Assembly: GCA_964654765.1 (NCBI GenBank)
Contig: CAZZKY010000146.1
Location: forward strand, 14,694 to 78,693
Source of the DNA: an uncultured bacterium
GTDB taxonomy: Bacteria; Hydrothermota; Hydrothermia; UBA1063
Direction of reading: 5' to 3'
Length of the DNA: 64,000 nt
Part shown: piece by piece, positions 8,323 through 60,589 of the stretch
How positions within the stretch are numbered: position 1 is the stretch's first letter
Layout of the letters: each line of letters opens with the position of its first letter
Notes under the pieces: model-generated
What the model was told of the DNA's origin: nothing
What the model saw: the letters and a program-made list of their open reading frames with translations, nothing else
The model's database searches: none
Translations under genes and position numbers: made by a program

Positions 8323-8718
8323 ATGGTCAAGATATCGCAGAAGACAAGATACGCAGTGCGGGCGCTGATAAGGCTGAGTACTTATGGGAATGAGGGTACA
8401 ACTTTAAAACAGATCTCTTTTAAAGAAAATATACCTTTAAAATTCTTAGAGCAAATCTTTTCAGCACTTGTAAAAGCTGGAATTCTGGAATCAAAGAGGG
8501 GCGCTGAAGGTGGATACAGACTCAAGAAGGACCTCTCCGAGATCACTCTTTATGAAGTTATGAAAGCTTTAAGGGAAGATGTTAAGCTGGCAAGGTGTTT
8601 TGACTTTGTAAAAAAGGAATGCCCTCTTGCAGAATATTGCTCTGTAGAGAGCTTTTGGAAAGAACTTCAGAACAAAATTACGAAAATTTTTGAGGAAACT
8701 ACATTGGGGAGAAAGTAA
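8323..8718 (+). CDS. Rrf2 family transcriptional regulator (IscR-like)
   Basis: 131 aa. 'MVKISQKTRYAVRALIRLS' is an Rrf2 wHTH N-terminus, and C-terminal cysteines (CFDFVKKECPLAEYC) form a likely Fe-S ligand set. It lies immediately upstream of nifS/nifU. Confidence 0.85.
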   Translation: MVKISQKTRYAVRALIRLSTYGNEGTTLKQISFKENIPLKFLEQIFSALVKAGILESKRGAEGGYRLKKDLSEITLYEVMKALREDVKLARCFDFVKKECPLAEYCSVESFWKELQNKITKIFEETTLGRK

Positions 8719-8719
8719 A

Positions 8720-32475: not shown

Positions 32476-33662
32476 TTTTTAATCAGCCCATCAGATCTAT
32501 GCTTTTCTCCTATCGCCTTTGCCAGTTTTTCGAGAGATTCATAGGCATTTTGGTCTGGTAACCCCTTAAAGGAGATTACATCAATAATTTCACCTTTGAA
32601 GTTGGAAAAAATGTTCTTAAGGTCATCAACTGTTTTTCCTCCCCATCCGTAAGAGTTAATTATAGCTAAATATTTTGTTTTTGGCCTTAATGCGTTGGCG
32701 AGGTACGTATAGTAAACAGTAAGGGGATGGGCACTGGCGAGCACTGTGGGTGTGGCTATGATTAGAGTGGCAATGTCAATCAGAGCCATTGCAATTTCTC
32801 CGGTATCTGCGACGGTCAGGTTGAAAACTTTCACATTCACACCTTCGTCAATGAGTTTTTGCTCTAAAAATCTTACAGCTCTTTCTACGCTATGGTGCAT
32901 AGAAACGTAAAGAATGGCTACCAAGTTTTCCACCTTATTGGATGACCAGTCCTTATATGCGTTGATAATAAATTGTGGATTTGTGTAGATTGGACCGTGG
33001 CTTGGGCAGATCATATCAGGAGAAAAATTCTCTATTTTCTCGATGTTTTTGGGTATCATATTTCTGAATGGTGCCATTATTTCTGCGTAGTATCTTTTTG
33101 CTGCGGTGTAAAGTTCTGGTGTTCCGTCACTCGTAAACTCTGTGGTAGGCAGGTGTGAACCAAAGAAGTCGCAAGTAAAAGCGATTTTATCTTCTAAAAG
33201 TAGGGTTGTTTGAGTCTCTGGCCAATGTACCCAAGGTGTCATGATAAATTTGAGGGTTTTTCCTCCGAGGTCAATGGTGTCTCCTTCTCCTATCACCATG
33301 AATTTATCTTGAGGGATTTGGAGGTGGGTTTTCAGGAGTTCGGCACACTTTTCATTCGTAACGACAATTGATTCAGGAAACAGGTTTAGAACTGCCGGAA
33401 TCGCGCCTGAGTGGTCTTGCTCAGCATGGTTGGAAATGATGTAGTCTATTCTGTTTATCCCAATGGATTTTAAGTCGCTGAGGAATTCTTCAACTTTTAA
33501 GGTATCGGTAGTGTCAATAAGGGCAGTTTTGCTTTTTCCTTTAATAAGGTATGCATTGTAAGTGGTTCCTTCGGGTAAGGGAATCAGCTCGTCAAAAAGT
33601 CTCCTTTCCCAGTGTAAAGTGTTTATTAGATACAAATCTTCTTTGATTTTTTTAACAGCCAT
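32472..33662 (-). CDS. Flavodiiron protein (A-type flavoprotein; rubredoxin:oxygen oxidoreductase / NO reductase)
   Basis: 396 aa. The metallo-beta-lactamase-like diiron motif 'ISNHAEQDHSGAIP' (H-x-E-x-D-H) is followed by a flavodoxin-like C-terminal domain. It sits in an operon with perR, flavodoxin and flavin reductase. Confidence 0.9.
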   Translation of the reverse strand: MAVKKIKEDLYLINTLHWERRLFDELIPLPEGTTYNAYLIKGKSKTALIDTTDTLKVEEFLSDLKSIGINRIDYIISNHAEQDHSGAIPAVLNLFPESIVVTNEKCAELLKTHLQIPQDKFMVIGEGDTIDLGGKTLKFIMTPWVHWPETQTTLLLEDKIAFTCDFFGSHLPTTEFTSDGTPELYTAAKRYYAEIMAPFRNMIPKNIEKIENFSPDMICPSHGPIYTNPQFIINAYKDWSSNKVENLVAILYVSMHHSVERAVRFLEQKLIDEGVNVKVFNLTVADTGEIAMALIDIATLIIATPTVLASAHPLTVYYTYLANALRPKTKYLAIINSYGWGGKTVDDLKNIFSNFKGEIIDVISFKGLPDQNAYESLEKLAKAIGEKHRSDGLIKN

Positions 33663-44497: not shown

Positions 44498-45121
44498 TTA
44501 ATCCCAGATGAGGATTTGATTTTGGGGAACTATTTTCCTCAATTTTTTCGTTGGGTTTACTGCAAAAAAAATTCCCGAAGCTTCAAGAAAGTGAATGTCT
44601 TTATGGTGATCTGCGTAAGTGATCGAATTTTTAAGTTCAATTCCCTCCCTTCTTGCAATCTCTTTAAGAATGAATTCCTTATTTTTTCCAAAGGGAATTT
44701 TCCCCTTTATTTTTCCGGTGTATTTACCATTTCTTATTTCAAGAAATGATGCATAAAATCCCTCCAATTTTAAATAATCACTAACTACCTGAGCAATGAA
44801 ATCGGGTGCCCCAGTAATGAGAAAAAGTCTATAACCTTCCTTTCTTTTTTGTTCTATATGGTCTATTGCTTTCTGGGAGATGGCCTTGATGATTTTATTT
44901 TGGCTTGATTTAAGTACTTTATAAATGTGTTCCGCCTTCAACCCGTGATAGTAAGCCTTTGAATTTTTAAAATTTTTGTATTTGAAGAGTGATTCGAGAA
45001 ACCATATCACTACACCCGATGGTGAAATTTGAAGTTTCTTGAATAGAATTTTCAGGAATCTTACTTCTGAGGAAGGATTTGGTATCAGTGTCCCATCCAA
45101 GTCAAAGAAGCAGGCTTTGCT
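44498..45121 (-). CDS. HAD-superfamily phosphatase (subfamily IB, phosphoserine-phosphatase-like)
   Basis: The start is at 'MSKACFFDLDGTLI' (motif I, DxDGT). Motif II is 'ITGAP' and motif IV is 'YADHHKD'. The start codon shares one nucleotide with the stop of the upstream CDP-alcohol transferase gene. Confidence 0.75.
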   Translation of the reverse strand, partial: SKACFFDLDGTLIPNPSSEVRFLKILFKKLQISPSGVVIWFLESLFKYKNFKNSKAYYHGLKAEHIYKVLKSSQNKIIKAISQKAIDHIEQKRKEGYRLFLITGAPDFIAQVVSDYLKLEGFYASFLEIRNGKYTGKIKGKIPFGKNKEFILKEIARREGIELKNSITYADHHKDIHFLEASGIFFAVNPTKKLRKIVPQNQILIWD

Positions 45122-45717
45122 CATTTGTTTTTGAGATAAGGCCAAGCATCTAAGATTACAGGGAGTCCTCTTGCTATGCAAATAATAAGAGATATCCAGG
45201 CGAAGGCAAGGGCAACTCCATGAATGTTGAAAGACAGTTTTCCATGGATGGTTAGGAGGTCAATCCCAAGAAGAGTAAAAGCGATGGCCTTTGAGAGAGC
45301 GTAACCGGTTCTGAAATAGCCTGAGGTTACAATAAATCTGGCGATCTTGTTATTGTGCATCTCGTAAGGTTTTACACCTTTCTTGAAAGCCGAACTCCTT
45401 ATTGTATCTACTACAACATCCCTGGTTATTACAATTACTGGAAACCAAAAGGAGATCCGTCCCTTTACTGCGAAAAAGATCCAGAATATGAATTCAACAA
45501 TGCGGTCGCCCGTAATATCAAGTATGGCACCAATCTCCGATTCTGCATTGAGGGTTCTTGCAAGGAAGCCATCAAGGAAGTCTGTAAATATTATTATTAC
45601 GATTAAAATGCAGGCTGCAAAGGTAGTTCCATACCTACCAAGGTCAAGAAGATAGAGGGTTAAAAAGCTGAGTAGAATTCTCAGGATACTAATTATATTT
45701 GGTAGGTTCCTTCTCAT
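45121..45717 (-). CDS. CDP-alcohol phosphatidyltransferase family protein
   Basis: 198 aa. 'DFLDGFLARTLNAESEIGAILDITGDRIVE' matches the D-G-x2-A-R-x8-G-x3-D-x3-D signature. Confidence 0.8.
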   Translation of the reverse strand: MRRNLPNIISILRILLSFLTLYLLDLGRYGTTFAACILIVIIIFTDFLDGFLARTLNAESEIGAILDITGDRIVEFIFWIFFAVKGRISFWFPVIVITRDVVVDTIRSSAFKKGVKPYEMHNNKIARFIVTSGYFRTGYALSKAIAFTLLGIDLLTIHGKLSFNIHGVALAFAWISLIICIARGLPVILDAWPYLKNK

Positions 45718-48700
45718 TTTACCACTACTACTTTTTGGATTGTTTTAATGTTTTCGGCTTCTACTTTTATAAAGTATACTCCAGGGGTTGCGTTTTCAAA
45801 AGGAATTTGGATAATAGAGTAGTTTGTGTCTGCTTGGATTTCTGTTTTAGTAAACAGACTGCCATAAATATTGTAAATGGATACTATAAAGGGCCCAGAA
45901 ATTCCCGAATAGATTTTTAATTTGAGAGGTGATCCCACTTTAATAATGTTATTGATAACGAGCTTCTTAAGGTTTAAACTGTCTCTGACGACTGATGAGT
46001 CAATTATATAAGCGAAATATTCTCCTCCCTCGATATTTCCGTTCTGTGTTAAAGGCCTTGGCACTTGCCACTGCAAAGTGCCGCCGTCTTCTGTTGAGTA
46101 GGAACCCACAGCGATGTAAATAACATTTAAATTTCCATAAAGTGAGAGATCAATGACTCCTTCTAAATAACCAAGGTCGCTGAAATAGGAAGCGCATTTA
46201 AAATGGATTGTGTCTGTTATTAAGGTACCTGTTGAATCAAACCACCCTACAAAATCATTGTTGTCTTCATCAGCTAAGAAGAACTGATATCTTCCAACTT
46301 GTCCCAGCTTTGCCCATGGCGCATTTACCATGGTAGAAGGTTCAAAAGATATGAATATGAAATGATCGTTAAAAAAGTATCCTGACTGATTCGCTGAGGC
46401 ATTACCTGCGGATTCAGTAGCAACATAAAGCCTCTTTGTATTTCGATCGTAGTACCCGTAAAGATGCATATTTTCGTTTTGGGCTAATAGGACAGCAACT
46501 CTATCAACGACGCCGTCCATGACAAAATCTTGGAACCCGACGGTGTATGAATAATTCTGGCCATTATTATTGTCCCAGTTCTCATTTTGATAGGGTGAGT
46601 TGTCTTTCGCACGAATAGCAAAATATACCCTTGTACCGGTAGGTTGGGGAGGTAGGTAAACACCGTAAAGTGCAGAATCTGGTTCGTGATTTCCATTATA
46701 ATCCCGACTTTGGCCATCATCGGGAAACATTTGAATATCAGTGTAAGATTGCCAGTTGTTGTTTGTATATCTTACCCAAGCGCCCAATATCCCAGACGGA
46801 TCGAGAATATTACTGGTCACAAGTACACTATCCATTTCGAGTATATTATAATTCGGGCTAAAAGTTGTATTCCAGATTCTTGGACCTTCCCTGTCTCCAG
46901 GACCCGGGACATCTACGTCTGGATCATCTTTTCCAGCGTAAAAGTAAATTGTGTAAGTTCCATTTCTTCCTCCAACTTCTATAAGCTCTGCTCCCGAGGA
47001 CATTTTGCCAAGGAAATTAAAGGTTAATCCAGTCCCTGAAGGATAAAGGAATACGGCTTTAATAGAATCGTAAAGGCTTTCGTATCCACCATAGGTCCAG
47101 CCGTTTTCACTGATCCCGTAGAGAGGCCTCATATTGTATCTGCGAAGAAGCTGTTTATAGAGTGAAGGAGTTACACCAGCCTTTGTCCAGTTGGAGTAGG
47201 TAGAGGAGTAGGTTATTGATACATAATTTTTACCAGTGGTCAGTTTTATTGTTTTAGTCAAGTCGTTCTGAGGAGTTCCGTTCCATGCATAACGCTCTGT
47301 GAAAGTAATAACTGCGGTGTCACCGAAGTAAGACACATTCACGTCAAACCATGAATTTTCACCTTGCGAATCGTTAAAAAGACCAGGGTGTCCCCCATCG
47401 TTATAATCACCTTCACCGTTCCAGTTGCTCATAAGATTTCCCACCACACAAGAAGGATCGGAAGTAAATACTGCAAGGGCTCGACCTCCCCTCCGATCAA
47501 AAATTAAGCACAATTTATCATTGTAAATTGTGTATTCTTTAACTCCATCTGCATCCAAGTCAAGGCTGTCAATTTTTGGGATTTCTTGAAATCTGAGAGA
47601 GTCAAGCCAAATTGCACCGTAACCGAAAATTGCTCCGTATCTTGTGTGGTTCCACAAATTTTTCCCCCAGTAAACGAGTTCTCCGCCAGGGCCAGTATGC
47701 CAAGCGGTTTCATAAAGCATAGAAGACAATGTGAGCCACCCCAATTTTGAAAATTCGTTATCTGGAGTATTCATAAGGTAGTTGTATGCAAATTTCCACA
47801 GATCTTCATAATCACCGTTAATTCCATTTCCATTCAAGTCAGGTCCATTCTCGCATCCCCATCCTACCGCTGATTTGAAATTGTTGTACCAGTTGTCATA
47901 AGTACCACCAGTCCAATCGTGGAGTTCCTGGTAGGTTGCATAATCTATATTTATGATTGGTGGGTCGTTATAGGGATCACTGTCGTAAATTTTATCAACC
48001 CCCCACCATTTTACTGCCTCGGCAATGTGAATGGGTTGTATCCAGTTTTGCTCTTTTATGAACCTTATATTCCAGTCATAACTAGAAGCGGGTGCCCCTG
48101 GCTGACCGAAATCCCAGCCCGCAACCCCTGCTGCCTTTTCCCAGTCGTCGCCATAAATTACTATCTGTTCTTGATCCGGGTCGTTTGCAAGGGAAGATAG
48201 GAGTTGATGTAAAGGATTTGAAGGGTTAGATACGTCATTCCAGACCATCTGATCCCTGGCAACTTTTTGAATAAATACAACAAAGACATAATTGCCTTCA
48301 CTATCAAACATTCTATGAACTTTCCGTGAATTGTTGCAGATGCTACCATCAGGGTAAGTATGAGAATACCACTCGTGGACATTATCATCTAAAACAATAC
48401 AGGGTGCAAGGTATCTACCCTGCGAATCATATTTACCGTATTCTTCGTTTAAGACCTTAATTAAAGAGTAGGGCATAAGGAGTTGTGACTTGAAAACTCG
48501 TTCTGGAACCCATATTACATTCGGATATTCAGGCCATCCAACTCCTTTAATTGAATTCTGATATAATGTTTTTGCGTACCAGAGTGAAAACTTATTTATG
48601 TTTCTATCAACATAAGGCATAATATGTTCTGCATAAGTACCGCCGACGAGGTAAACCAAATCTCCTCGGAGCCTATTAAGTAAACCACGATCGTTTTGCA

Positions 48701-48929
48701 TCCACGTATAAGATTGAGTTAGTGTTCCTGAAATATGTATGTCAATAGGGCAGTTGTAATATTCATGGGTATCGAGGGTGCGGTGGAAAGAGTTACCATT
48801 GTATCCATAGTCCCCAGGTCTCAATGCATAGTAGCCGTTGTCTGAGAAATGCTGGTTTCCATGATGTAAAAAAGCGATTTTTGCAGTTCCACCTAAAAGT
48901 ATAAGTTTAATTATTATTGCAAATAGCAT
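45714..48929 (-). CDS. Large secreted protein (1071 aa) with GH57-like glycoside hydrolase motifs and a T9SS/Por C-terminal sorting domain
   Basis: Signal peptide 'MLFAIIIKLILLGGTAKIAF'. The candidate GH57 conserved regions are 'FLHHGNQHF' (CSR1-like), 'LVGGTYAEHIMPYV' (CSR2-like HPILP), 'VIWVPERVF' (CSR3 with the nucleophile Glu), 'YGDDWEKAAG' (CSR4-like) and 'AEAVKWWG' (CSR5-like). The C-terminal 'FIVSIYNIYGSLF...PGVYFIKVEAENIKTIQKVVVVK' is a T9SS CTD. Confidence 0.55.
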   Translation of the reverse strand: MLFAIIIKLILLGGTAKIAFLHHGNQHFSDNGYYALRPGDYGYNGNSFHRTLDTHEYYNCPIDIHISGTLTQSYTWMQNDRGLLNRLRGDLVYLVGGTYAEHIMPYVDRNINKFSLWYAKTLYQNSIKGVGWPEYPNVIWVPERVFKSQLLMPYSLIKVLNEEYGKYDSQGRYLAPCIVLDDNVHEWYSHTYPDGSICNNSRKVHRMFDSEGNYVFVVFIQKVARDQMVWNDVSNPSNPLHQLLSSLANDPDQEQIVIYGDDWEKAAGVAGWDFGQPGAPASSYDWNIRFIKEQNWIQPIHIAEAVKWWGVDKIYDSDPYNDPPIINIDYATYQELHDWTGGTYDNWYNNFKSAVGWGCENGPDLNGNGINGDYEDLWKFAYNYLMNTPDNEFSKLGWLTLSSMLYETAWHTGPGGELVYWGKNLWNHTRYGAIFGYGAIWLDSLRFQEIPKIDSLDLDADGVKEYTIYNDKLCLIFDRRGGRALAVFTSDPSCVVGNLMSNWNGEGDYNDGGHPGLFNDSQGENSWFDVNVSYFGDTAVITFTERYAWNGTPQNDLTKTIKLTTGKNYVSITYSSTYSNWTKAGVTPSLYKQLLRRYNMRPLYGISENGWTYGGYESLYDSIKAVFLYPSGTGLTFNFLGKMSSGAELIEVGGRNGTYTIYFYAGKDDPDVDVPGPGDREGPRIWNTTFSPNYNILEMDSVLVTSNILDPSGILGAWVRYTNNNWQSYTDIQMFPDDGQSRDYNGNHEPDSALYGVYLPPQPTGTRVYFAIRAKDNSPYQNENWDNNNGQNYSYTVGFQDFVMDGVVDRVAVLLAQNENMHLYGYYDRNTKRLYVATESAGNASANQSGYFFNDHFIFISFEPSTMVNAPWAKLGQVGRYQFFLADEDNNDFVGWFDSTGTLITDTIHFKCASYFSDLGYLEGVIDLSLYGNLNVIYIAVGSYSTEDGGTLQWQVPRPLTQNGNIEGGEYFAYIIDSSVVRDSLNLKKLVINNIIKVGSPLKLKIYSGISGPFIVSIYNIYGSLFTKTEIQADTNYSIIQIPFENATPGVYFIKVEAENIKTIQKVVVVK

Positions 48930-49081
48930 GGAGTTATTATGCTATACCCATTGTAGAAATTCAACCCTTACTGCTTTTTTGAAGTCGTGTGGTATAGGAT
49001 TTCCTTTTTGATCTTCTTTAAAGGAGCTTGCGCTTTTTGATTTTTTAGTTTTATGTTGTAAAATTTTAAACAGGAGGACCT
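48930..49081. promoter_or_regulatory. Promoter/leader region of the V-type ATPase operon
   Basis: A 152-nt intergenic region upstream of the first atp gene with an AGGAGG RBS at its 3' end. The exact -35/-10 positions were not confidently assigned. Confidence 0.3.
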
Positions 49082-49387
49082 ATGGAGGATATCATTAGGA
49101 AGATTAAAGAAGCTGAGAAGGAAGCTGAGAAATTGATTAAAAAGACTGAAGAAGAAGCAAATCTAATAATAAGCGAAGCTCAGAAACTCGCGTCCCAGAA
49201 AATTGAAGAAGCTTTAAACAGGCGGAAAGAGATTCTTCAAACTGTTGATGATGAAGCTCAAAAACTGGCGCAGGAGAAGGTTAAAGAATTAGAAAAAGCG
49301 TTTTCAGCTAAAATTGAGGAACTGAAAAGCAGGGCGGAGAAGAAAGAAAAAACAGCCTTTGAGTTTTTAATAAGTAAACTAATATAA
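49082..49387 (+). CDS. V/A-type ATPase small coiled-coil peripheral-stalk subunit (subunit G/H type)
   Basis: 101 aa, almost entirely a charged Glu/Lys/Ala-rich helix ('KEAEKEAEKLIKKTEEEANLIISEAQKLA'). It is the first gene of the atp operon. Confidence 0.6.
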   Translation: MEDIIRKIKEAEKEAEKLIKKTEEEANLIISEAQKLASQKIEEALNRRKEILQTVDDEAQKLAQEKVKELEKAFSAKIEELKSRAEKKEKTAFEFLISKLI

Positions 49388-49391
49388 ATTT

Positions 49392-51362
49392 ATGGCAAAG
49401 GTAGCTTTAAAGAAAGTAGTTTTTTATGTACATTATTTAGAGAGAGAAAGATTGCTGGAGCGACTTCAGGACGAGGGACTCGTCCATTTCACCGAAATTA
49501 GGCGGGATTTAAAAGATGAATTCGAAGTTACTCATCTTTCTGAGGTTGAATTTGAATCCCATCTCGAGTCTGTATTAACACGGCTTTCTAATGCTATAAA
49601 GTTTCTTGAGAGTTATACCCGTAAAAAATCTTTTATAGAGAGCTTATATGAAGCAAAAAAGCCTGTTGAGAAGAAAGAATTTTTCAGGATAGCGCGCTGT
49701 GTTGAACCTGGTACAATTCTCGTTCAGGTTGAGACCCTTGAGCAAGAGTTGGCTCAGTTAGCCCAAGAAGAGTCCAACCTTTTGGCTCAGAAGAATTTCA
49801 TTTTACCTTGGGTTAATCTGGAATACAATCTTGAAGATATAAAGAGTACCGATGAATTGGTAATGGCGCCGGGTTCACTGCCCAGCGGTAAAATAGCTGA
49901 CCTTGAGGAACTCCCTTTGGCATGTCAACTTGTATATGATGATGGCAAAAGGGCCTATGTTGTTCTAATTTACCACAAAAAGGACGAGGATTTAATTCGA
50001 CCAATTCTACAGGAAAAAGAGTTTGAACCTGTTGAGTTCCACGGTTACCATGGTCGCCCTGCTGAAATTCTAAGAGAATTGGATGAAAAACTTAACATCC
50101 TTGAAGAGGAAAAGAAAAATTTAAAGCAGGCAATTGAAAAAGTTTCCAGGCATTATGATGTACTTACCATATTATACGATTATTATCAATCAGTTTACAA
50201 TAGAGAGTTGATAGACAACCGTGGGCTAAAGACTGCCAGTATCTCGGTTTACCAAGGTTATGTGAGGGAAAGAGAGCTCGCAAGGCTTGAAAAAGTCTTT
50301 TCCGAATTTGAAACTGCCTACTATGAAGTAGTTGAACCAGAAGATGGAGAGGAAGTTCCCGTTGAATTGGAAAACAGGAAGATTTTTAAACCGTTTGAAG
50401 GTCTGGTGAAGATGTATGGGCTTCCCTCTCCCATTGACCCTGACCCTACTGCGATCATAACGCCCTTTTTTATTCTATTTTTTGGGATTTGCTATGGAGA
50501 TGCCGCCTACGGATTACTACTTTCATTACTATCTATCTGGTTTATGAGGAAGCTGAAAATTTCAGCACCCCTTTTATGGATTCTTTTTGCTGGTGGAATC
50601 GCCTCCATGATTTTCGGTGCTATTACAGGCGGGTGGTTCGGGGATTTCTTTGAAAGGGCAAATATAGGTTTTCTCAATGCGTTTCGAAGGAAGATGATGG
50701 TTTTTGACCCAATGAATGATGTGATGACCTTTTTTGCTTTAACGATTGCCCTTGGTTTCATTCAAGTAAATGTGGGACTTGCAGTAAATGCCTACAAGAG
50801 GATTAGAGAGGGAGATACCATTGGGGCCATTTCTCAGCCTATTGCCTGGATAGTTATTTTATCTTCCCTTGTTTATCTTGGTCTTTTTGCAGGTAAGATT
50901 TCAAATCCACTGCTTAATAACACGGTGAAAGCACTGGCACTATTTTTCGTCCTATTAATGGTTTTGTTCAGTTCAAGGCATAGCAGGAATTTTGTTATTC
51001 GTATTGTGAAAGGTGCCTATAATGTTTACAATGGTGTTGGCTTCATAGGGGATCTTCTTTCCTACGTGCGTTTGATGGCTCTTGGCCTAACTTCCTCTGG
51101 AATTGCAATGGCTATCAATATCTTAACTCTGCTCGTTTGGCAAATTCCCATTGCTGGTTATATTCTTGGACCTTTGGTCTTTATTTTTGGGCATTTGTTC
51201 AGCCTTGCGATAAATATTCTCGGTTCAATTGTGCATCCGTTACGTTTGCAATATGTTGAGTTTTTCAAGCAGTTTTATGACGATGGTGGGACACCGTTCC
51301 TTCCTTTGAAGTGGGAGGGAAAATACACTGAAATTGTTGAAATTAAAAAACAGGAGGTGTAA
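49392..51362 (+). CDS. atpI: V-type ATPase subunit I (membrane a-subunit)
   Basis: 656 aa with an N-terminal ~330-aa soluble coiled-coil domain and C-terminal multi-TM domain. The essential Arg lies in 'LSYVRLMALGL'. Confidence 0.9.
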   Translation: MAKVALKKVVFYVHYLERERLLERLQDEGLVHFTEIRRDLKDEFEVTHLSEVEFESHLESVLTRLSNAIKFLESYTRKKSFIESLYEAKKPVEKKEFFRIARCVEPGTILVQVETLEQELAQLAQEESNLLAQKNFILPWVNLEYNLEDIKSTDELVMAPGSLPSGKIADLEELPLACQLVYDDGKRAYVVLIYHKKDEDLIRPILQEKEFEPVEFHGYHGRPAEILRELDEKLNILEEEKKNLKQAIEKVSRHYDVLTILYDYYQSVYNRELIDNRGLKTASISVYQGYVRERELARLEKVFSEFETAYYEVVEPEDGEEVPVELENRKIFKPFEGLVKMYGLPSPIDPDPTAIITPFFILFFGICYGDAAYGLLLSLLSIWFMRKLKISAPLLWILFAGGIASMIFGAITGGWFGDFFERANIGFLNAFRRKMMVFDPMNDVMTFFALTIALGFIQVNVGLAVNAYKRIREGDTIGAISQPIAWIVILSSLVYLGLFAGKISNPLLNNTVKALALFFVLLMVLFSSRHSRNFVIRIVKGAYNVYNGVGFIGDLLSYVRLMALGLTSSGIAMAINILTLLVWQIPIAGYILGPLVFIFGHLFSLAINILGSIVHPLRLQYVEFFKQFYDDGGTPFLPLKWEGKYTEIVEIKKQEV

Positions 51363-51363
51363 A

Positions 51364-51834
51364 TTGACTGCAGGACTTTGGTTATCAATACTTGGTGCTG
51401 GACTGGCGACCTTTTTGCCGGGTCTTGGTTCAGCAATAGGGGTTGGCACGACAGCAAGGGCTGCTGCAGGTGTTCTTTCTGAAGATCCAAGTAAGTTTGG
51501 AAGGTTGTTTCTCCTGGTAGCCCTTCCAGGTACTCAGGGTTTTTACGGATTTATTGCGGCTCTCCTTGTCATAATTAAAGTTGGTCTTTTGGGTGAGGTT
51601 AAGCCTCTTGATTTCATGCAGGGGCTTCAGATTTTCCTTGCCACTATTCCGATAACTTTTCTTGGGTACTTTTCAGCCATACATCAGGGTAAAGTGTGTA
51701 CTGCTGGTGTTGAGATGGCTGCTAAAAAGCCCGAATCTTCCATGCAACCAGTTATTTATGCAGGTTTAGTTGAAACTTACGCTGTTCTTGGCCTTCTTGC
51801 TACTATATTTATTCTACTTGGCATTAAGGTTTAA
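51364..51834 (+). CDS. atpK: V-type ATPase subunit K (proteolipid c-subunit)
   Basis: A TTG start after the AGGAGG RBS ('LTAGLWLSILGAGLATFLPGLGSAIGVG'). It has four TM helices and the ion-binding Glu in 'GLVETYAVLGLL'. The upstream ATG at 51334 overlaps atpI and is less likely. Confidence 0.85.
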   Translation: MTAGLWLSILGAGLATFLPGLGSAIGVGTTARAAAGVLSEDPSKFGRLFLLVALPGTQGFYGFIAALLVIIKVGLLGEVKPLDFMQGLQIFLATIPITFLGYFSAIHQGKVCTAGVEMAAKKPESSMQPVIYAGLVETYAVLGLLATIFILLGIKV

Positions 51835-51845
51835 GGAGGTCGATA

Positions 51846-52421
51846 TTGGGCCTTCAAGAGATACTGAATAAAATTAAAGAAGAGACTGAACTTAAAAGGC
51901 GAGGAATCCTCGATAGAGCAATAGCTGAAAGAGAAAGAATCCTGAAAGAAGCGGATGCTCGAGTGGAGGAAATTCTTCATAAAGCCCAGCAGGAAAAGGA
52001 GAAGCTGGTAATTCAAAAGCTTAATGCACTAATTGCAGATTACGAAATAAAGTCAAATGTTGAAATTGCTAAAATAAAAAGGGAAATTTTGAAAAGGGTT
52101 TACGAAAAGGTCCAGAGGTACATAATCGAAAATAAGCAGATTTACAGCGAGATTGTAAGAAAGCTGTTTGAACTGGTTGAATTGAATGGAGATGAGGAAA
52201 TATTTGTTCAAGAGGGTGAGTCGGTAATCAACAGGGATTTCATAGACCAGATAAACAGGGAAAAGGGTTGGAAATTGAAGCTATCAGAGAATCCTGTCAG
52301 GATCAGTGGTGGATTCATTGCGAAGGGTCCAAATTCGGTTATAGACGCTTCCATAGAGAAACTCATCGAAATTTTACAGGAGGAGACTGAAGTTCATGTG
52401 TCAAACATTTTGTTTTTCTAA
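51846..52421 (+). CDS. atpE: V-type ATPase subunit E (peripheral stalk)
   Basis: 191 aa. It has an N-terminal long charged helix and a C-terminal globular domain, occupies the position after K, and has a TTG start with an AAGGAGG RBS. Confidence 0.8.
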   Translation: MGLQEILNKIKEETELKRRGILDRAIAERERILKEADARVEEILHKAQQEKEKLVIQKLNALIADYEIKSNVEIAKIKREILKRVYEKVQRYIIENKQIYSEIVRKLFELVELNGDEEIFVQEGESVINRDFIDQINREKGWKLKLSENPVRISGGFIAKGPNSVIDASIEKLIEILQEETEVHVSNILFF

Positions 52422-52430
52422 GTAACAGTT

Positions 52431-53450
52431 ATGTTAAAATTACCGTTTAATAGGTATCCTTCTTTTGGAAAAGATGACCCTGAATATGCCTATGCGTGTG
52501 GAAGGATAAAGGCTCTTGAGACAAAACTGCTGGATCGTGTAAGGTTTGAACGCCTTGCAACTTCAAAAGATATAGAGGAACTCTTCAAGATGCTTCAGGA
52601 TACGGAATATTCAAGGTACTTAAACGAAATACACAAGCCTTCAGACTTTGAGATTTTGCTGAAAAAAGAGCTTGAAAGGCTTTTCTCCTTAGTTTCTGAA
52701 TTGTCAGTAGAGCCAGCCCTTGAAAGGGATCTAAGGCTGCCATACGATTTTTTAAATTTGAAAATACTTGTGAAGTCCCTTATTTTCGAAAAGGACTTTT
52801 CGCACGCCTTTTCTAAGTACTCTTATTATCCTGCGACTTTGCTTAAACACGAACTTGAAACTGGCAAAGGTGATATGCTTATGAAAGAAATTTATGATGC
52901 TTATGAGTATGCAATTTCCTCCTATTATGAAACCAGGGAAGTCTTCAGAATTGATTCAGCGGTCGATAATGTGATGTATGGATATTTCGCTAACTCTTCA
53001 TTTTTTGAGTTTTTAAGAATCTACTACAATTTAAATGCAGACCTCAAGAATTTAATATCCTTTTTAAGACTTGAAAGGATGGGAAAACTGCAAGCCCTAA
53101 AACATGTTTTACTGGCTGCAGGATATTTGCCTCAGGAACTCTTCTATAAGGTCCCAGATTTTAACACTTTACTATATGAGATAAGGCATACAGTTTATTA
53201 TCAAGTTCTTCAACCGGGGTACGCACAATATCAGAAGACTGGAAGTTTCGTTAAGATGGAAAAGGATGTTGCCAATTACTTGAACGGCCTTGTTAAAGAG
53301 GCCTCCAAAAAGGATCTTTCGGTGGAAGTATTAATATCCTACTTTTTCAGAAAGAAATACGAGGTCTCCTTACTCAGGATGATTATGGTATCAAAACTTA
53401 ACCAACTCCCCAAAGAAATTGTTATTGAAAGAATTCCGGAGGTATTATGA
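52431..53450 (+). CDS. atpC: V-type ATPase subunit C (archaeal-type C / eukaryotic d)
   Basis: 339 aa, an all-helical protein in the conserved position between E and F. Confidence 0.8.
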   Translation: MLKLPFNRYPSFGKDDPEYAYACGRIKALETKLLDRVRFERLATSKDIEELFKMLQDTEYSRYLNEIHKPSDFEILLKKELERLFSLVSELSVEPALERDLRLPYDFLNLKILVKSLIFEKDFSHAFSKYSYYPATLLKHELETGKGDMLMKEIYDAYEYAISSYYETREVFRIDSAVDNVMYGYFANSSFFEFLRIYYNLNADLKNLISFLRLERMGKLQALKHVLLAAGYLPQELFYKVPDFNTLLYEIRHTVYYQVLQPGYAQYQKTGSFVKMEKDVANYLNGLVKEASKKDLSVEVLISYFFRKKYEVSLLRMIMVSKLNQLPKEIVIERIPEVL

Positions 53451-53755
53451 AAAGGGTGATTTGCCTTGGAAAGTATGAAACGGTATTTCCTCTGAAAGCC
53501 ATAGGAATGGAGTATAGGGTTTGTAACACTGGCGAAGAAGCAAGAGAAGCCCTCAAGAGTCTTATTTCTCAGAATTACGGCTTGATTTTTATAGAGGAGG
53601 ATTATTTTCAAAGTGTTAAGGATATCGTTGATAGTTTGAAAGAGCAGGCATACCCTGCCGTAACTTTCATTCCTGGTGCGGGTGGAAGTACCGGCCAGGC
53701 AAGGGAAAAGTTGAGAGCAATTTTGCTTAGAGCCATTGGAATTGACATCTTTTAG
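53447..53755 (+). CDS. atpF: V-type ATPase subunit F
   Basis: 102 aa. '[20 protein letters not shown]...[11 protein letters not shown]' shows the flavodoxin-like fold typical of F. There is an ATGA overlap with atpC. Confidence 0.8.
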
Positions 53756-53765
53756 GAGGTTGAAA

Positions 53766-55523
53766 ATGAAATCAGGGCGAATCGTTAAAGTTTCAGGTCC
53801 TCTCGTTGTGGCCGAAGGTATGCTTGGTACTAAGATGTACGACGTTGTCTACGTTGGAGAGATGAGACTTTTGGGGGAAGTTATCGAATTGAAAGGCGAT
53901 AGGGCTTATATACAGGTTTATGAAGATACCCACGGGATAGGCCCCGGAGACCCAGTCTACGAAAGCGGTTATCCTCTTATGGTTGAACTTGGTCCTGGAC
54001 TTATAGAGTCTTTCTTTGACGGTATTCAAAGGCCCCTTGATAGAATAAAAGTTTTATCAGGCGATTTTATTTCCCGTGGTCTTCATGTACCTGGATTGCC
54101 CAGAGACAAGAAGTGGTTCTTTGTTCCAAAGGTGAAAAAGGGTGATGTTGTAGAAGAAGGCGATATCATAGGCGAGGTCGATGAGACTACTCTGGTAAAG
54201 CACAAAATAATGGTCCCGCCAGGTATTAACGGTGTTATCGATGATATTAAAGAGGGCGTTTTCACGGTGGAAGATGTGGTTGCGGTAGTTAAGGATAAGA
54301 ATGGAAAACTGCACGAGATTAAGATGATGCAGAAGTGGCCCGTAAGAATCCCAAGGCCCTATAAAGAAAAACATCTACCTGATACTCCCATGTTCACAGG
54401 GCAAAGAGTAATCGACACCTTTTTCCCTATTGCCAAAGGTGGTACTGCATGTGTTCCCGGACCTTTCGGATCAGGTAAAACTGTTATACAGCATCAGCTT
54501 GCCAAGTGGTCTGATGCTAACATTGTCGTTTACATAGGTTGTGGTGAGCGCGGTAATGAGATGACTGATGTATTAATAGAATTCCCAGAGTTGAAAGACC
54601 CTTATTCCGGACAGCCCTTAATGAAAAGGACTGTTTTGATCGCTAACACTTCGAATATGCCTGTAGCGGCGAGAGAGGCTTCCATTTACACCGGGATCAC
54701 TATTGCAGAGTATTTCAGGGATATGGGGTACTCCGTTGCTCTTATGGCCGATTCAACATCAAGATGGGCTGAAGCGATGAGAGAGATTTCAGGGCGTCTT
54801 GAAGAAATGCCAGGAGAAGAAGGTTATCCCGCGTATCTTGCAGCAAGGGTTGCCAGTTTTTACGAAAGGGCTGGGAAAGTCACTTGCCTTGGAAAGGATA
54901 ACAGGGAGGGAACCCTTACTGTGATTGGAGCAGTTTCCCCTCCCGGTGGTGACCTTTCAGATCCAGTGGTTCAGTCCACTCTTAGAGTTGTTAAGGTATT
55001 CTGGAGCCTTGAAGACAAACTCGCCTACAGAAGGCATTTCCCTGCCATCAACTGGCTGACCAGTTATTCACTTTACAGAGAAAGCTTAAGGCCCTATTAT
55101 GAGAAGAATGTGGCTCCAGACTTTTACGATATGGTTCTTGAAGCAATGAAAATTCTTGAGAAGGAAGCGGAACTGGAGGAGATTGTAAGGCTTGTTGGCG
55201 CAGAGGCATTGTCTCAAGATGACCAATTGCTTCTGGAAATAGCAAGAAGTATAAGAGAGGATTTTTTGCATCAAAACGCTTTTCATGAGGTAGACACTTT
55301 CGCATCTATAAGAAAACAGTACCTAATGCTCAAAGTTATATTAAAACTTTACGAAATATGTAAAGACATCATTGCAAAAGGTGAGACAACGGTGAAGGAT
55401 TTAAAGAAGAAACCCGTTTGGGAAAAAGTGGCGAGGATGAAATATTTTTCAGAGGATGAATTGGGTGAAATTGAGAAATTGTTAAAGGAGATTGATCATG
55501 AAGTTAGACAGCCAGTTGGTTAA
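53766..55523 (+). CDS. atpA: V-type ATPase catalytic subunit A
   Basis: The start is '[19 protein letters not shown]' after AGGAGG. Walker A is 'GPFGSGKTV', and the A-subunit non-homologous region is present. The length of 585 aa rules out an intein. Confidence 0.95.
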
Positions 55524-56907
55524 AAAGAGACTATCAAAATTTAACGCTGTTACCAATATTTCAGGTCCTCTAATGCTCGTTGAGGGCATCGGTGGTGTTA
55601 AATACGGTGAGCTTGTAGAAATTGAATTACCTTCTGGTGAGATTAGGAGGGGCGAAGTTTTACAGGTAGAAGAAGATAAGGTTTTATTGCAGGTTTTTGA
55701 GGGTACCTCGGGAATTGACATTCCAAAAACCTCAGTAAGATTTCTTGCAAAAGGTCTTGAAATTAACCTTTCCATTGATATGCTTGGGAGAGTTTTTAAT
55801 GGTCTCGGTCGCCCGATTGATGGTGGTCCCGAAGTAGTTCCTGAAGAGAGAGCAGATATTAATGGGGCACCAATAAACCCTTATGCCAGGGATTATCCAA
55901 ATGAATTTATTCAAACGGGTATTTCTGCAATTGATGGTTTGAACACCCTCGTTAGGGGGCAGAAACTTCCTATCTTCTCCGGCTCTGGTTTACCACATAA
56001 CAGGCTTGCTACGCAGATTGCCAGACAGGCAAAAGTTCGGGGAGAGGGTGAAAGTTTTGCAGTAGTTTTCGCTGCAATGGGTATTACCTTTGAAGAAGCA
56101 GAGTTCTTTATTAAAAGCTTCAGGGATACAGGTGCTATTGGTAGATCAGTCCTTTTTATAAATCTTGCCGATGACCCTGCAATAGAGAGAATAGCAACTC
56201 CAAGAGTTGCTCTAACTACCGCTGAGTACCTTGCATTTAAGAAAGATATGCATGTCCTTGTTATTCTTACCGATATGACAAATTACTGTGAAGCACTGCG
56301 CGAGATTTCTGCGGCGAGAAAGGAAGTTCCGGGAAGAAGAGGATACCCTGGATACCTTTATACTGATCTTGCCACTATTTATGAAAGAGCCGGGCGAATA
56401 AAAGGCAAAAAGGGCTCCATTACCTTAATTCCCATTCTTACTATGCCTGAAGACGATAAGACCCATCCCATACCTGACCTAACGGGCTATATAACGGAAG
56501 GCCAAATCATCCTTTCCAGGGCACTGCACAGGAAAAAGATTTACCCACCCATAGATGTCCTTCCTTCCCTTTCGAGGTTGAAGGATAAGGGAATTGGTAA
56601 AGGTAAAACGAGAGAGGACCATTCCGACGTTTTTAACCAGCTCTTTGCGTGTTATGCAAGGGGTAAAGAAGTTCAGGAATTAGCAGTAATTCTCGGTGAG
56701 GGTGCGTTATCAGAAATTGATAAAATTTATTCTAAATTTGCAGATCTCTTTGAAGAAAAATATGTGGGTCAGGGGGAATTTGAAGACAGGAGCATCGAGG
56801 AGACTCTTGATCTCGGTTGGGAATTACTTTCTATGTTTCCGACTTCTGAGCTTAAAAGAATTAGGCCTCAGTTTATTGAGAAGTATTTGAAGAAAGCAGA
56901 GAGTTGA
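55492..56907 (+). CDS. atpB: V-type ATPase subunit B
   Basis: 471 aa with '[10 protein letters not shown]...[27 protein letters not shown]' and the degenerate P-loop region 'SGSGLPHN'. Confidence 0.95.
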
Positions 56908-56947: not shown

Positions 56948-58846
56948 ATGCTAAAAATAATCATAACTTTTTTAGTTTTTGGAAAATTTGCGTATATTGT
57001 CGAGCTTGATTCTACTTATGAAGCATACTACGAAAGCGGAATTAGTGAGAGGATTGAATATAGGCGTGTTAAAGTTTTAGAGAATGAGATTCCAGAAGAA
57101 TTGAGGGCTTTAGAGGTCACCTATACTCCCTACTACAATACAGCGGATTTTGAGTTTGTGAGAGTTATAAGAGGTAGGGACACATTATATCTTGATACTG
57201 AGGATATTGTTGACGTTCTTGCCCCACCTGACCTTGGAGGTACTATTTTTTGGGGAGAGAGAAAGAAAATTCTTGAGATCAAGGATTTGAGAAAAGGAGA
57301 TATCCTTGAGAGTAAGGTCAAAAAGTATGGAGGAAACTGGCTTGGCCCCACAGGAGTAGACAAATACAAAACACCTTATCCTGGATATTTTAATCAGATA
57401 GTCCTTTTTGGGGAAGAGGTTCCGGTAAAGAAAAAAGTGTACTTGTTAGAAGAATTACCAGAAAAACCCATTAAATTTGGAATTTTCAATGGGAAAATCA
57501 GACATCGCATCATAACAAAGGATGGAAAAAAGATTCACGTGTTTTATTCTAAAAATATAAGGCCTTACAAGGTGGAATCTCTCTCTCCTTCAATATACGA
57601 TTTTGTGCCCAAGCTCATCGTCACCAACATTCCTTCTTGGAATGAAATGTCTCGCATTGAATTCCACAGAGCTGAGCCCAATGTTACACCTAATGAAACG
57701 ATAAAAATCTTTGCAGATAGTCTTTGTAAGGGCATTATGGATGAGGATGAAAAAATAAGAAGACTATTTTATTTTGTGGCAGATGAAATTCGATACCTTG
57801 GACTCATTGAATCTGAAATGGAGGGCTACGAGCCTCACCCTGCCTGGTTAACTTTGCAGAAAAGATCGGGAGTTTGTAAAGATAAAGCAGCGTTGTTGGT
57901 TGCTCTTCTAAGGGCACAGGGCTTTAAAGCTTATTATGCAACCACTGCCGTGGGGATGAGGGTGGAAAACATTCCTGCGGACCAAACAAATCACGCTATC
58001 GTTGCTATAGAGAGAGGTGAGAATTATGAATTTCTTGATCCTACCATAGGTGCTGGTGGAAGAGACCTTTTGCCTGCATCGGAAGGCGGTCAATCGGTTT
58101 TGGTGTCGAGAGAAGATGGAGACACTTTGAGAACCATTCCTGTTTCGCCGGCTGAAAAGAATAAAGTTTCAATTTATATCTATACAAATTTATCAGGTGA
58201 TACTATTCATTTTGTCTATTTGATGAACTTCGACGGCGCTTTTGATCAGAGATTTCGCAGAGTTGCCCAGAGTGGAAGGCAGAGAATGAAAAACTTTCTT
58301 CATAACATCTTAAGTGAGGTCTATTCAGGCGTTGTTGTTATAGATTCCATAAGATTTACAGACCCCAAAGACTATTCTGACTACTTCAAGGTCTGGATTT
58401 CAGGTAGAGCTTTTAATTCTGTTATCAATACTTCAGATTTCAAACTTTATAGGCCGGTTTGTTCTAAACTTACTTCAAGTTTTGTTTATTTTCTGAGACA
58501 TTTGAATTCCAAAAGAGAGCTGGATTTAGTTATTTCGTCGCCTCAGACCTATGAGGTAAAGGAGTTCGTTCCACTTGCTAAGGTAGTGGAACCTTTAAAA
58601 AAGCACGTTAGTTTTGGTAAAGAACAAGCTTACCTTTTTAACTTTGAAACAGGTTATTTCGTTGACCAAGTTGAGGGGGCAAGGTACTTTTTAAACACAG
58701 AAGAAAGCGGCGGTTGGTATAGTCTTACGACTTCATTCGTATTCAGTAAGAAGAAATATTCTCCCGTTGAAGTTAAATCGATGTTTAAAGATTATCAAAA
58801 TTTGCAGGAAAGTGAGAATATTTGGCTAATTTTTAAAGGAGAATAG
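56948..58846 (+). CDS. Secreted transglutaminase-like cysteine protease-fold protein with a DUF3857-like N-terminal region
   Basis: 632 aa with a hydrophobic N-terminus (signal or anchor). The catalytic triad is intact: Cys in 'SGVCKDKAALLVALLRAQGFKAYYA', His in 'NHAIVAIE' and Asp in 'FLDPT'. Confidence 0.75.
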   Translation: MLKIIITFLVFGKFAYIVELDSTYEAYYESGISERIEYRRVKVLENEIPEELRALEVTYTPYYNTADFEFVRVIRGRDTLYLDTEDIVDVLAPPDLGGTIFWGERKKILEIKDLRKGDILESKVKKYGGNWLGPTGVDKYKTPYPGYFNQIVLFGEEVPVKKKVYLLEELPEKPIKFGIFNGKIRHRIITKDGKKIHVFYSKNIRPYKVESLSPSIYDFVPKLIVTNIPSWNEMSRIEFHRAEPNVTPNETIKIFADSLCKGIMDEDEKIRRLFYFVADEIRYLGLIESEMEGYEPHPAWLTLQKRSGVCKDKAALLVALLRAQGFKAYYATTAVGMRVENIPADQTNHAIVAIERGENYEFLDPTIGAGGRDLLPASEGGQSVLVSREDGDTLRTIPVSPAEKNKVSIYIYTNLSGDTIHFVYLMNFDGAFDQRFRRVAQSGRQRMKNFLHNILSEVYSGVVVIDSIRFTDPKDYSDYFKVWISGRAFNSVINTSDFKLYRPVCSKLTSSFVYFLRHLNSKRELDLVISSPQTYEVKEFVPLAKVVEPLKKHVSFGKEQAYLFNFETGYFVDQVEGARYFLNTEESGGWYSLTTSFVFSKKKYSPVEVKSMFKDYQNLQESENIWLIFKGE

Positions 58847-58849
58847 GAA

Positions 58850-60589
58850 ATGTTGTTCCTTTCCATATTGCTGTTCGGTCAATATATCATAAGTAAAGGT
58901 GACACAGTAAAAGTGAGTTATAAGGAGTACAGACTTGATGATAGCTTGATAATTGCCAAGGAGGAGCGAAAAATACTTATAAGGACTGAAGAGGCAAGAG
59001 AGTATTTTGGCACGATAATATTCCCTTATGACGATTCAACAGAAACTATTGAAGTTCTTTATGCCCGTACCATAACCCCTGAAGGTGACACCATAAATGT
59101 AACAGAGAATGCGATAAACAGGGTAGCAGCCCCCTTAGTTGACTCTTACCCTTTTTTAAAAAATAGAAAAGAACTCCACATTTCATTCCTTTCTATAAAG
59201 CCGGGTTCAACTATTGAATATTGCGTGGAAAGGAAGATAAAGAACTTCGATTATGTGGATGGAATTGAATATTTTAGAAGCATTATTCCTGTTGAATATG
59301 GCAGACTGGTTTTTCATTTTCCTCAAAAGTTAGGCCTAAGGTTTTATAAAGGTAACACCGAAATTTGCAACTTTTCTGAAAACTTAAGGGATTCTGCAGA
59401 TTACAGAGTTTACGAAATTGAATTTAAAAATGTTCCTGAAATTGTTAAAAACGAATGGGGTGGATTTCCTCCTACTCATTTAATCTCGCCTTACGTAATG
59501 TTTACCACGTTTCCTTCTTGGGATTCCCTGATAAGCTATATTTCATTTCATTATAGAAAGCTTGAAGCAATAAAGCCTCAAAAAATGGAACTTAGTAAAC
59601 TTAAGGAGTTAAGTAAGAAGATAAATTCCCCTGAGTGGGAAAATTTTAAGATTCAGGGTTATGTTCCCATAGATAGAAATCGTTCTGCTTCTTTCTATAC
59701 TATGACTTATCCAGAGAAGATTTTGAGAATCTTTTCTTCCTTTGAAGGGCTCTCCTTAGCTTTGGTTCTCCGATACGGATATGATACACTTAATTTAATT
59801 CCTTCCTTGTCTGCCATAGAAAATATAGTTCTCTATGATGGCATCAGATTTCTATTTCCCATTCAGAGTGAAGAGAAGGTACTGAGTACCCCTTACGAAG
59901 GCCATATTGCACTTGTGCTTTCTTCCGATTTGAATAGTTATTCCGTTGAGCAAATAGGGTTCAGGGATGTACTTTCAGAGACGCTTTTTATCGATATACC
60001 GAGAAAGTTAATCTCATTTTCAAGTTGGGTCCCGTCAAGTAGGTTGCTCAGATCCTATTCGTGGTCAAGGAGAAGCAGGGTGGATTTTGAAAATGTGGAG
60101 AAATTCATTCCGCGGTCAAAGTTTTCCATTTATGGGGTAATTAAAGATTTTGCGGCATCTTTGAAATATGAGAATGTTCCTGATAAACCCTATTTTATAT
60201 CAGGGAGGGTCAAGTATAAGTCTATCGGGTCACAAATAGGTAAATATTTGATTCTTTATATTCCTGAAATGCCAAAAATTGAGCCGGAGCTATTTAAAAA
60301 TGGATACTATCTGAATCGTTGGGATGTGTCTAAGAGGAATGTTTGCTTCATAGTAAAAGTGCCTAAGGGCTATAGGGTGAAATATGCACCCCAACCAGTA
60401 TCTTATGAGGACGATAAGGTCTCTTTGATAAGGGATGTGGAGTATAATCGTGGCTTAGTGATAATAAAACAGAGTATGGCTTTTTTGAAAAGATATTTTG
60501 AATACGAAGATTTAGTGAAAATGACTCGTAGTCCCGAATTTGTTAATTTAACGTCGCCTCAAGTGATTATTTTTGAGCGTAAACGTTGA
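58850..60589 (+). CDS. Paralog of the preceding protein lacking the transglutaminase catalytic Cys/His/Asp (probable pseudo-enzyme partner)
   Basis: 579 aa, starting 4 nt after the previous stop, with a hydrophobic N-terminus. Its N-terminal ~150 aa align with the DUF3857-like region of the upstream protein ('TIIFPYDDSTETIEVLYARTITPEGDTINV...RVAAPLVD' versus 'LEVTYTPYYNTADFEFVRVIRGRDTLYLD...DVLAPPD'). It has no GxCxD/NHA/DPT core. Confidence 0.5.
   Translation: MLFLSILLFGQYIISKGDTVKVSYKEYRLDDSLIIAKEERKILIRTEEAREYFGTIIFPYDDSTETIEVLYARTITPEGDTINVTENAINRVAAPLVDSYPFLKNRKELHISFLSIKPGSTIEYCVERKIKNFDYVDGIEYFRSIIPVEYGRLVFHFPQKLGLRFYKGNTEICNFSENLRDSADYRVYEIEFKNVPEIVKNEWGGFPPTHLISPYVMFTTFPSWDSLISYISFHYRKLEAIKPQKMELSKLKELSKKINSPEWENFKIQGYVPIDRNRSASFYTMTYPEKILRIFSSFEGLSLALVLRYGYDTLNLIPSLSAIENIVLYDGIRFLFPIQSEEKVLSTPYEGHIALVLSSDLNSYSVEQIGFRDVLSETLFIDIPRKLISFSSWVPSSRLLRSYSWSRRSRVDFENVEKFIPRSKFSIYGVIKDFAASLKYENVPDKPYFISGRVKYKSIGSQIGKYLILYIPEMPKIEPELFKNGYYLNRWDVSKRNVCFIVKVPKGYRVKYAPQPVSYEDDKVSLIRDVEYNRGLVIIKQSMAFLKRYFEYEDLVKMTRSPEFVNLTSPQVIIFERKR

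Follow-up and report, generated by a model that had tools for sequence, protein, structure and literature searches.

Described GH57 Enzymes and Secreted Amylases

Enzymes of glycoside hydrolase family 57 (GH57) have a (beta/alpha)7 barrel with a Glu nucleophile at strand beta4 and an Asp proton donor at strand beta7 (PMC6037648, PMC12106739). Multidomain GH57 enzymes that carry carbohydrate-binding modules (CBMs) and S-layer homology (SLH) domains have been described (PMC12106739), and alpha-amylases secreted by the type IX secretion system (T9SS) are established in Flavobacterium johnsoniae (PMC11885536). The founding GH57 structure is that of the Thermococcus litoralis 4-alpha-glucanotransferase (TLGT; 1K1W). 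TLGT is cytoplasmic, the Thermococcus-type multidomain GH57 enzymes are secreted and surface-attached, and the T9SS-secreted alpha-amylases of F. johnsoniae belong to GH13. Here, we report a GH57-like gene with a T9SS C-terminal sorting domain (CTD) in a 64,000-nucleotide stretch of DNA from an uncultured Hydrothermota bacterium (GenBank assembly GCA_964654765.1, contig CAZZKY010000146.1, positions 14,694 to 78,693 of the forward strand; hereafter the window). The gene product is quite probably an extracellular, retaining alpha-glucan-active enzyme that represents a divergent GH57 lineage in a thermophilic WOR-3/Hydrothermota bacterium.

The gene differs from each of these described systems. 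For the GH57 amylopullulanases SmApu (Staphylothermus marinus, 7E1Y) and AaApu (Aquifex aeolicus, 9JLR), a profile of the family found here has no match at E ≤ 1. AaApu has a single catalytic domain and is further distinguished by the WPPEAS and DGENCW fingerprints (PMC12106739). Multidomain GH57 enzymes such as the Thermococcus amylopullulanases are similar in that carbohydrate-binding and surface modules are added to a catalytic domain, and the SLH domains of such enzymes imply cell-surface localization. However, they have SLH domains instead of a T9SS CTD, contain other binding modules, and belong to another GH57 subgroup. The F. johnsoniae amylases are similar in that amylolytic enzymes are exported through the T9SS for extracellular starch digestion (PMC11885536), but they come from Bacteroidota, whereas the enzyme reported here is of the GH57 type and from WOR-3/Hydrothermota. 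An earlier annotation of the window, made from the sequence without database searches (hereafter the sequence-only reading), argued that a surface-anchored GH57 enzyme would be an unusual arrangement. This argument was overstated, as T9SS-secreted amylases and GH57 enzymes that carry CBM plus SLH domains were already known. Among the titles and abstracts considered, no report of GH57 combined with a T9SS CTD was found, and no literature on GH57 in WOR-3 was found. A pullulan-enrichment study and a study of a WOR-3 isolate likewise contained no relevant information. Although no published description of this domain combination was found, it is ordinary in its working, involves no new principle, and leaves the understanding of GH57 and T9SS unchanged. 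Within the clade, the combination is common in databases, with a CTD in 51 of 120 homologs.

Domain Organization

The gene and its domains, listed from the N- to the C-terminus of the product after the complete reading frame, are as follows (amino acid positions are abbreviated as aa, and conserved sequence regions as CSR).

45714..48929, minus strand: complete open reading frame (ORF) of the predicted secreted multidomain GH57-like enzyme, 1071 aa plus stop codon, ATG start
48882..48929, minus strand: putative Sec signal peptide, aa 1–16, MLFAIIIKLILLGGTA followed by K, called by inspection
47595..48881, minus strand: GH57-type catalytic domain, (beta/alpha)7 barrel plus helical subdomain, aa 17–445
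48501..48503, minus strand: codon of Glu143, the predicted nucleophile, in the CSR-3 motif WVPERV after strand beta4, aligned to TLGT WLTERVW
48147..48149, minus strand: codon of Asp261, the predicted general acid/base, in the CSR-4 motif DDWEK at the end of strand beta7, aligned to TLGT FHDDGEKF
47697..47717, minus strand: LYETAWH, aa 405–411, probable true CSR-5
46914..47594, minus strand: C-terminal beta-sandwich of the GH57 core, galactose-mutarotase-like as in TLGT, aa 446–672
46530..46892, minus strand: CBM21/CBM53-like starch-binding module, aa 680–800, containing NWDNNNGQNY
45975..46529, minus strand: CBM9/DOMON-like beta-sandwich, aa 801–985, by fold resemblance
45717..45923, minus strand: T9SS type A CTD, aa 1003–1071 (TIGR04183, PF18962)

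The sequence-only reading had placed the gene at these coordinates without naming the strand, and all five motif strings that it quoted are present in the translation (HHGNQH, aa 22–27; GGTYAEHIMPYV, aa 96–107; WVPERVF, aa 140–146; GDDWEK, aa 260–265; AEAVKWWG, aa 303–310). It had also proposed beta-sandwich modules behind the catalytic half and a Por-type CTD, and both were confirmed. In the AlphaFold model, the whole part from aa ~450 onward is all-beta, and TIGR04183 matches aa 1011–1069 with 28.5 bits, above its cutoff of 23. The mutarotase-like beta-sandwich was found in 118 of the 120 homologs.

Relationship to GH57

The resemblance of this protein to GH57 is far beyond chance. When a profile of 63 family sequences was compared with all PDB sequences, the only match was TLGT (1K1W, E = 7e-9). 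A Foldseek search of the PDB likewise ranked TLGT first (1k1x, E = 4.8e-21), followed by GH38 mannosidases of the same fold superfamily. Family profile and predicted fold point to GH57 only. A direct phmmer search with the query against PDB sequences matched only CBM21 domains and none from GH57. The AlphaFold2 model was built with the same 63-sequence alignment and has a predicted local distance difference test score (pLDDT) of 92.3 and a predicted template modeling score (pTM) of 0.74; numbering in the alignment and the model is one lower than the protein numbering used here, as Met1 is absent. The model contains seven parallel strands, with Glu143 just after strand 4 and Asp261 at the end of strand 7. 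In this predicted structure, the barrel and the placement of the two residues agree with the GH57 layout described above. The protein and TLGT share a barrel, a helical subdomain, and a C-terminal beta-sandwich, as well as similar CSR-3 (WVPERV vs. WLTERV) and CSR-4 (DDWEK vs. DDGEK) motifs. In contrast, TLGT is ~659 aa long, shows neither a signal peptide nor a CBM or sorting domain in the comparisons made, differs in CSR-1 (HNHQP vs. HHGNQ in the query), and has an identity of only ~12–15%.

The HMMER alignment between the family profile and TLGT covers four of the conserved regions. The family motif HGNQ is paired with TLGT HNHQP in CSR-1, "glveiv" with GQLEIV in CSR-2 (GDLVYLV, aa 89–95 of the query), WiPERvw with WLTERVW in CSR-3, and YgDDWEK with FHDDGEKF in CSR-4. 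Further downstream, DlDgDGidE is paired with DVDFDGRAE, where the C-terminal beta-sandwich of TLGT begins. In TLGT numbering, we take the nucleophile to be Glu123 and the acid/base to be Asp214. Among the 63 aligned sequences, which span bacteria and archaea, the residues H23, N25, Q26, H55, H65, S67, G68, Y106, E143, R144, D181, D261, D262, W263, E264, E407, and W410 are all invariant. Conservation of the nucleophile Glu in homologs had been named beforehand as a point on which the GH57 assignment could fail. Glu143 is kept in 63/63 sequences, so the assignment is not refuted on this point.

The five-region assignment of the sequence-only reading stood for the CSR-1, CSR-3, and CSR-4 motifs, whereas its CSR-2 was slightly misplaced and its CSR-5 was off by ~100 residues. 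The string GGTYAEHIMPYV was rejected as CSR-2 and corresponds to the segment immediately downstream of the true one. AEAVKWWG was rejected as CSR-5; it is variable in distant homologs and maps, through the homolog P0068, to TLGT residues ~250–257. The TLGT CSR-5 is located at residues 350–358, ~100 residues past that position, and the alignment of P0068 with 1K1W ended before this region. Judged from conservation and pattern, the true CSR-5 is probably LYETAWH, a segment that resembles TLGT AQCNDAYWH and includes the invariant E407 and W410 as well as H411 (conserved in 59/63). The clade is distinguished by a fingerprint that consists of HHGNQ, WxPERxW, DDWEK, and YETAWH.

Carbohydrate-Binding-Type Modules

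The module at aa 680–800 matches CBM_21 (PF03370) with 28.9 bits when scanned as an isolated domain, which equals the gathering threshold (GA) of 28.9, and with 24.0 bits in the full-protein scan. Among 13 clade members, the same module is matched by CBM53 in seven, CBM_21 in four, and CBM_25 in four. Because the clade members are split among these three families, the exact CBM family is borderline. In PDB searches, the module profile matched the CBM21 domains of PPP1R3C, PPP1R3A, and PPP1R3B (E = 8e-5 to 0.1), and CBM21 domains of glycogen-targeting PP1 subunits were aligned by phmmer to aa 712–794 of the query. The module agrees with CBM21 at the level of both family model and structure match, and it is predicted to bind starch or glycogen. 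For the following module, a profile of aa 801–1000 had no match in PDB sequences or Pfam, and only a fold search gave an indication, a tentative resemblance of aa 801 to ~985 to CBM9. A homolog search with aa ~675–985 gave a single match, a protein of 416 aa, and was uninformative. The starch-binding module, the CBM9-like module, and the CTD are kept as a set in homologs P0001–P0038.

Distribution of Homologs

A search with aa 1–669 found 290 matches. Among these, 38 are full-length relatives (52–100% identity over aa 1–669; ~1005–1093 aa) from metagenome-assembled genomes (MAGs) of candidate division WOR-3/Hydrothermia, and the named ones carry only the NCBI name "T9SS type A sorting domain-containing protein." The distant relatives (23–32% identity, E = 1e-66 to 1e-20) are from Bathyarchaeia, Desulfurococcaceae (annotated as "glycoside hydrolase"), Thermoplasmata, and Sumerlaeaceae, and GH57-starch-synthase fusions of Geodermatophilaceae are also found among the distant matches. 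The GH57 family model of Pfam (PF03065) is present in many distant relatives. In another group of relatives, the catalytic core and the CTD are combined with an N-terminal extension. Among species-representative genomes, 57 loci were identified, chiefly in WOR-3/Hydrothermota and often with two paralogs per MAG. The other loci belong to Gemmatimonadota, Mcinerneyibacteriota, and Zixiibacteriota, and to the archaeal groups Bathyarchaeia, Desulfurococcaceae (including complete Thermogladius genomes, L048 and L049), Thermoplasmata, and DHVE2.

This GH57 lineage is rare. With the catalytic domain as query, phmmer found only 167 matches at E ≤ 1e-3 and seven at E ≤ 1e-30 among 1.84 billion cluster representatives (50% identity). 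These results define a rare, uncharacterized GH57 clade with its own fingerprint; in its bacterial members, the catalytic domain goes unrecognized by standard annotation. Recognition of this clade improves the annotation of carbohydrate-active enzymes in WOR-3 MAGs, and the protein itself is a candidate for a thermostable amylolytic enzyme that is secreted and brings its own starch-binding module. As a side observation, relatives in Desulfurococcaceae and Thermofilaceae (L044, L045, and L048–L050; ~27–30% identical) share the HHGNQ/PER/DDWEK/YETAWH fingerprint and have an extra N-terminal domain of ~250 aa. These cultured or near-cultured lineages would be tractable sources for characterizing the clade.

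Gene Contexts

The genes that flank the GH57-like gene in the window are as follows.

45121..45717, minus strand: PgsA-like CDP-alcohol phosphatidyltransferase, downstream, with a 4-bp overlap (ATGA) with the stop codon of the GH57-like gene
49082..56907, plus strand: V/A-type ATPase operon (subunit I, proteolipid c, and A and B subunits), upstream and divergent from the GH57-like gene

The PgsA-like gene is predicted to share a transcription unit with the GH57-like gene and is followed by a gene for an HAD-IB phosphatase (44498..45717, minus strand, for the downstream part of this trio). The linkage of the PgsA-like and HAD-IB genes to the GH57-like gene is kept across the ortholog clade in eight related loci (L001, L006–L008, L010, L011, L014, and L029), among which transferase identity is as low as 44–46%.

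Other members of the family are found among genes for alpha-glucan metabolism and uptake. Two loci (L004 and L013) have a GH13 pullulanase-like gene (CBM48+X25+Alpha-amylase) directly upstream and a glucan phosphorylase gene directly downstream, with two CBM48 proteins and MalK nearby. Three loci (L002, L005, and L032) have a CUT1-type ABC transporter and a CBM48 protein, and in L002, a CBM48+GH57 protein is encoded 7 kb from the family member. Genes for MalK or a solute-binding protein also adjoin relatives in Gemmatimonadota (L023), an unclassified bacterium (L031), and an uncultured archaeon (L054), as well as the archaeal relatives in Thermoplasmata (L058) and DHVE2 (L059 and L060). These gene contexts support an alpha-glucan role for the family and, only indirectly, for the ortholog group of the query.

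Three additional observations concern loci of the family. The WOR-3 alpha-glucan loci (L004, 2643..12787; flanks of L002 and L005) encode function-unassigned CBM48 proteins of 540, 131, and 579 aa. The same loci also encode unannotated proteins of 347, 442, and 661 aa that are conserved between loci. In a different paralog clade (L017, 9165..10043, plus strand; L022), a gene for a DAGK_cat/YegS-like lipid kinase is located directly downstream of the GH57-like gene, which makes it the second lipid-metabolism gene that adjoins a family member.

Function and Alternative Explanations

In the proposed mechanism, the short N-terminal signal peptide would direct Sec passage across the inner membrane and be cleaved, and the type A CTD would then be recognized for a T9SS route that ends at the cell surface or in the medium. 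For export, the close homologs listed have hydrophobic N-termini of ~10–35 aa, mostly ending in (S/G)GTA just ahead of the first barrel strand, K(I/V)AF, and small residues occupy positions -3 and -1 of the putative cleavage site. The CBM21/53-like module, possibly together with the CBM9-like module, may keep the enzyme attached to starch or glycogen. In the barrel, Glu143 would attack the anomeric carbon, giving a glycosyl-enzyme intermediate, with Asp261 as the general acid/base in a retaining double displacement. The intermediate could be resolved by water (amylase-type hydrolysis), by another glucan (4-alpha-glucanotransferase-type transfer), or by some balance of the two. The extracellular alpha-glucan degradation suggested by the sequence-only reading is retained here as probable, given the homology, the starch-binding-type module, the CTD, and the alpha-glucan loci of relatives. 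The GH57 identity that it proposed is supported by the family profile, the predicted fold, and the intact Glu/Asp dyad.

Several observations weigh against this reading, and the first group concerns the enzyme itself. With PF03065 as a proxy for the dbCAN GH57 hidden Markov model (HMM), neither the full protein nor the isolated N-terminal 451 aa had a match at E ≤ 10, and NCBIfam gave no GH57 match for either the full protein or aa 1–451. The GH57 identity thus stands without a direct HMM hit on the query, and the dbCAN HMM, like PF03065, might miss this protein. PF03065 exceeds its GA of 21.2 bits in P0031 (54% identical to the query; 25.0 bits) and P0040 (41%; 24.8 bits), as well as in more distant relatives (P0047, P0054, and P0062 with 60.5, 57.1, and 47.1 bits, respectively; archaeal relatives span 47–60 bits), and phmmer with aa 1–669 reaches such PF03065-passing proteins at E = 1e-66 to 1e-20. 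As the model passes in orthologs and relatives and fails in the query, the clade straddles the Pfam threshold with the query just outside. In addition, no characterized member of the clade was found in the literature. Regarding the substrate, the fold alone leaves it unfixed because GH57 also contains alpha-galactosidases (PMC6037648). The query's own neighborhood (PgsA-like transferase, HAD-IB phosphatase, serine dehydratase, and V/A-ATPase operon) is without carbohydrate genes, and the alpha-glucan contexts come from paralogous or more distant lineages outside its ortholog group. Regarding export, the putative signal peptide is only 16 aa long and was called by eye, and no match to T9SS machinery genes (SprA/Sov, PorV, PorU, and GldKLMN) was found among the ~40 ORFs scanned in the 64-kb window. 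We know of no experimental demonstration of T9SS function in WOR-3.

These export points bear on an alternative explanation that we consider rather unlikely, in which the CTD is a generic Ig-like or surface-attachment domain without a working T9SS, and the protein is periplasmic or reaches the surface by another route. Such an explanation would fit the lack of T9SS components in the window, the PF18962 (Por_Secre_tail) score of 26.9 bits, just below the GA of 27, and the fact that reviews often limit T9SS to Bacteroidota (PMC11885536, PMC11611037). However, TIGR04183 exceeds its trusted cutoff, and in each of the 38 close homologs, the domain, a beta-sandwich of six to seven strands at residues 1001–1069 of the model, forms the extreme C-terminus. 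Moreover, a second protein in the window matches the CTD more strongly (34.4 bits), and several WOR-3/Hydrothermia homologs are annotated by NCBI as T9SS type A cargo.

A second alternative, which we regard as unlikely, keeps the same GH57-like fold and dyad but assigns the enzyme to turnover of envelope or extracellular alpha-linked glycans or glycolipids, or to a non-glucan substrate such as alpha-galactosides, rather than to starch harvest. Consistent with it, the PgsA-like and HAD-IB genes follow throughout the ortholog clade even where the transferases have diverged, the GH57-like and PgsA-like genes overlap by 4 bp in the window, a lipid kinase gene lies behind another paralog clade, and alpha-galactosidases occur within GH57. 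Nonetheless, the gene order in related MAGs may be inherited without a functional link. The starch-binding-type module (CBM21/53/25 matches) is kept clade-wide, and the sister lineages are found in clear alpha-glucan/maltodextrin-uptake clusters. We also give little probability to a more specific proposal with two versions, namely that the protein is either an extracellular GH57 4-alpha-glucanotransferase that yields transfer or cyclic products for uptake or an envelope glycan/glycolipid enzyme that works with the PgsA-like transferase and the HAD phosphatase. In the former version, the enzyme could be the GH57 analog of the secreted GH13 cyclodextrin glucanotransferases, and TLGT is its closest sequence relative. 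Either version, if true, would indicate that a T9SS cargo system also works outside Bacteroidota, namely in thermophilic WOR-3/Hydrothermota. Finally, a catalytically dead, glucan-binding surface protein is very improbable; although several GH57 "-like" groups lack catalytic residues (PMC6037648) and two putative binding modules are present, neither the two catalytic residues nor the motifs around them vary in any of the 63 sequences from bacteria and archaea.

Other Features of the Window

Upstream of the GH57-like gene is a promoter-like sequence (TTGAAT-17-CATAAT; 48936..48964, minus strand). Only 6 nt separate its end from the ATG, and this interval lacks a Shine-Dalgarno sequence. This arrangement would suggest a leaderless or near-leaderless mRNA. 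Promoter-like sites near the gene show no enrichment over shuffled sequence of this region, such that the site is no more than expected by chance.

The second CTD-bearing protein (12406..15432, minus strand; 1008 aa), probably secreted and protease-like, exceeds the GA for PF18962 and contains an InhA-like MAM domain. Elsewhere in the window, two tandem DUF3857 paralogs are present at 56948..58846 and 58850..60589 (plus strand), the first of which also has a transglutaminase-like core. Two cysteine desulfurase genes are located at 8690..9886 and 28256..29488 (both plus strand), one NifS/IscS-like and one of the SufS type (563.7 bits, above cutoff), and a flavorubredoxin-like gene is found at 32472..33662.

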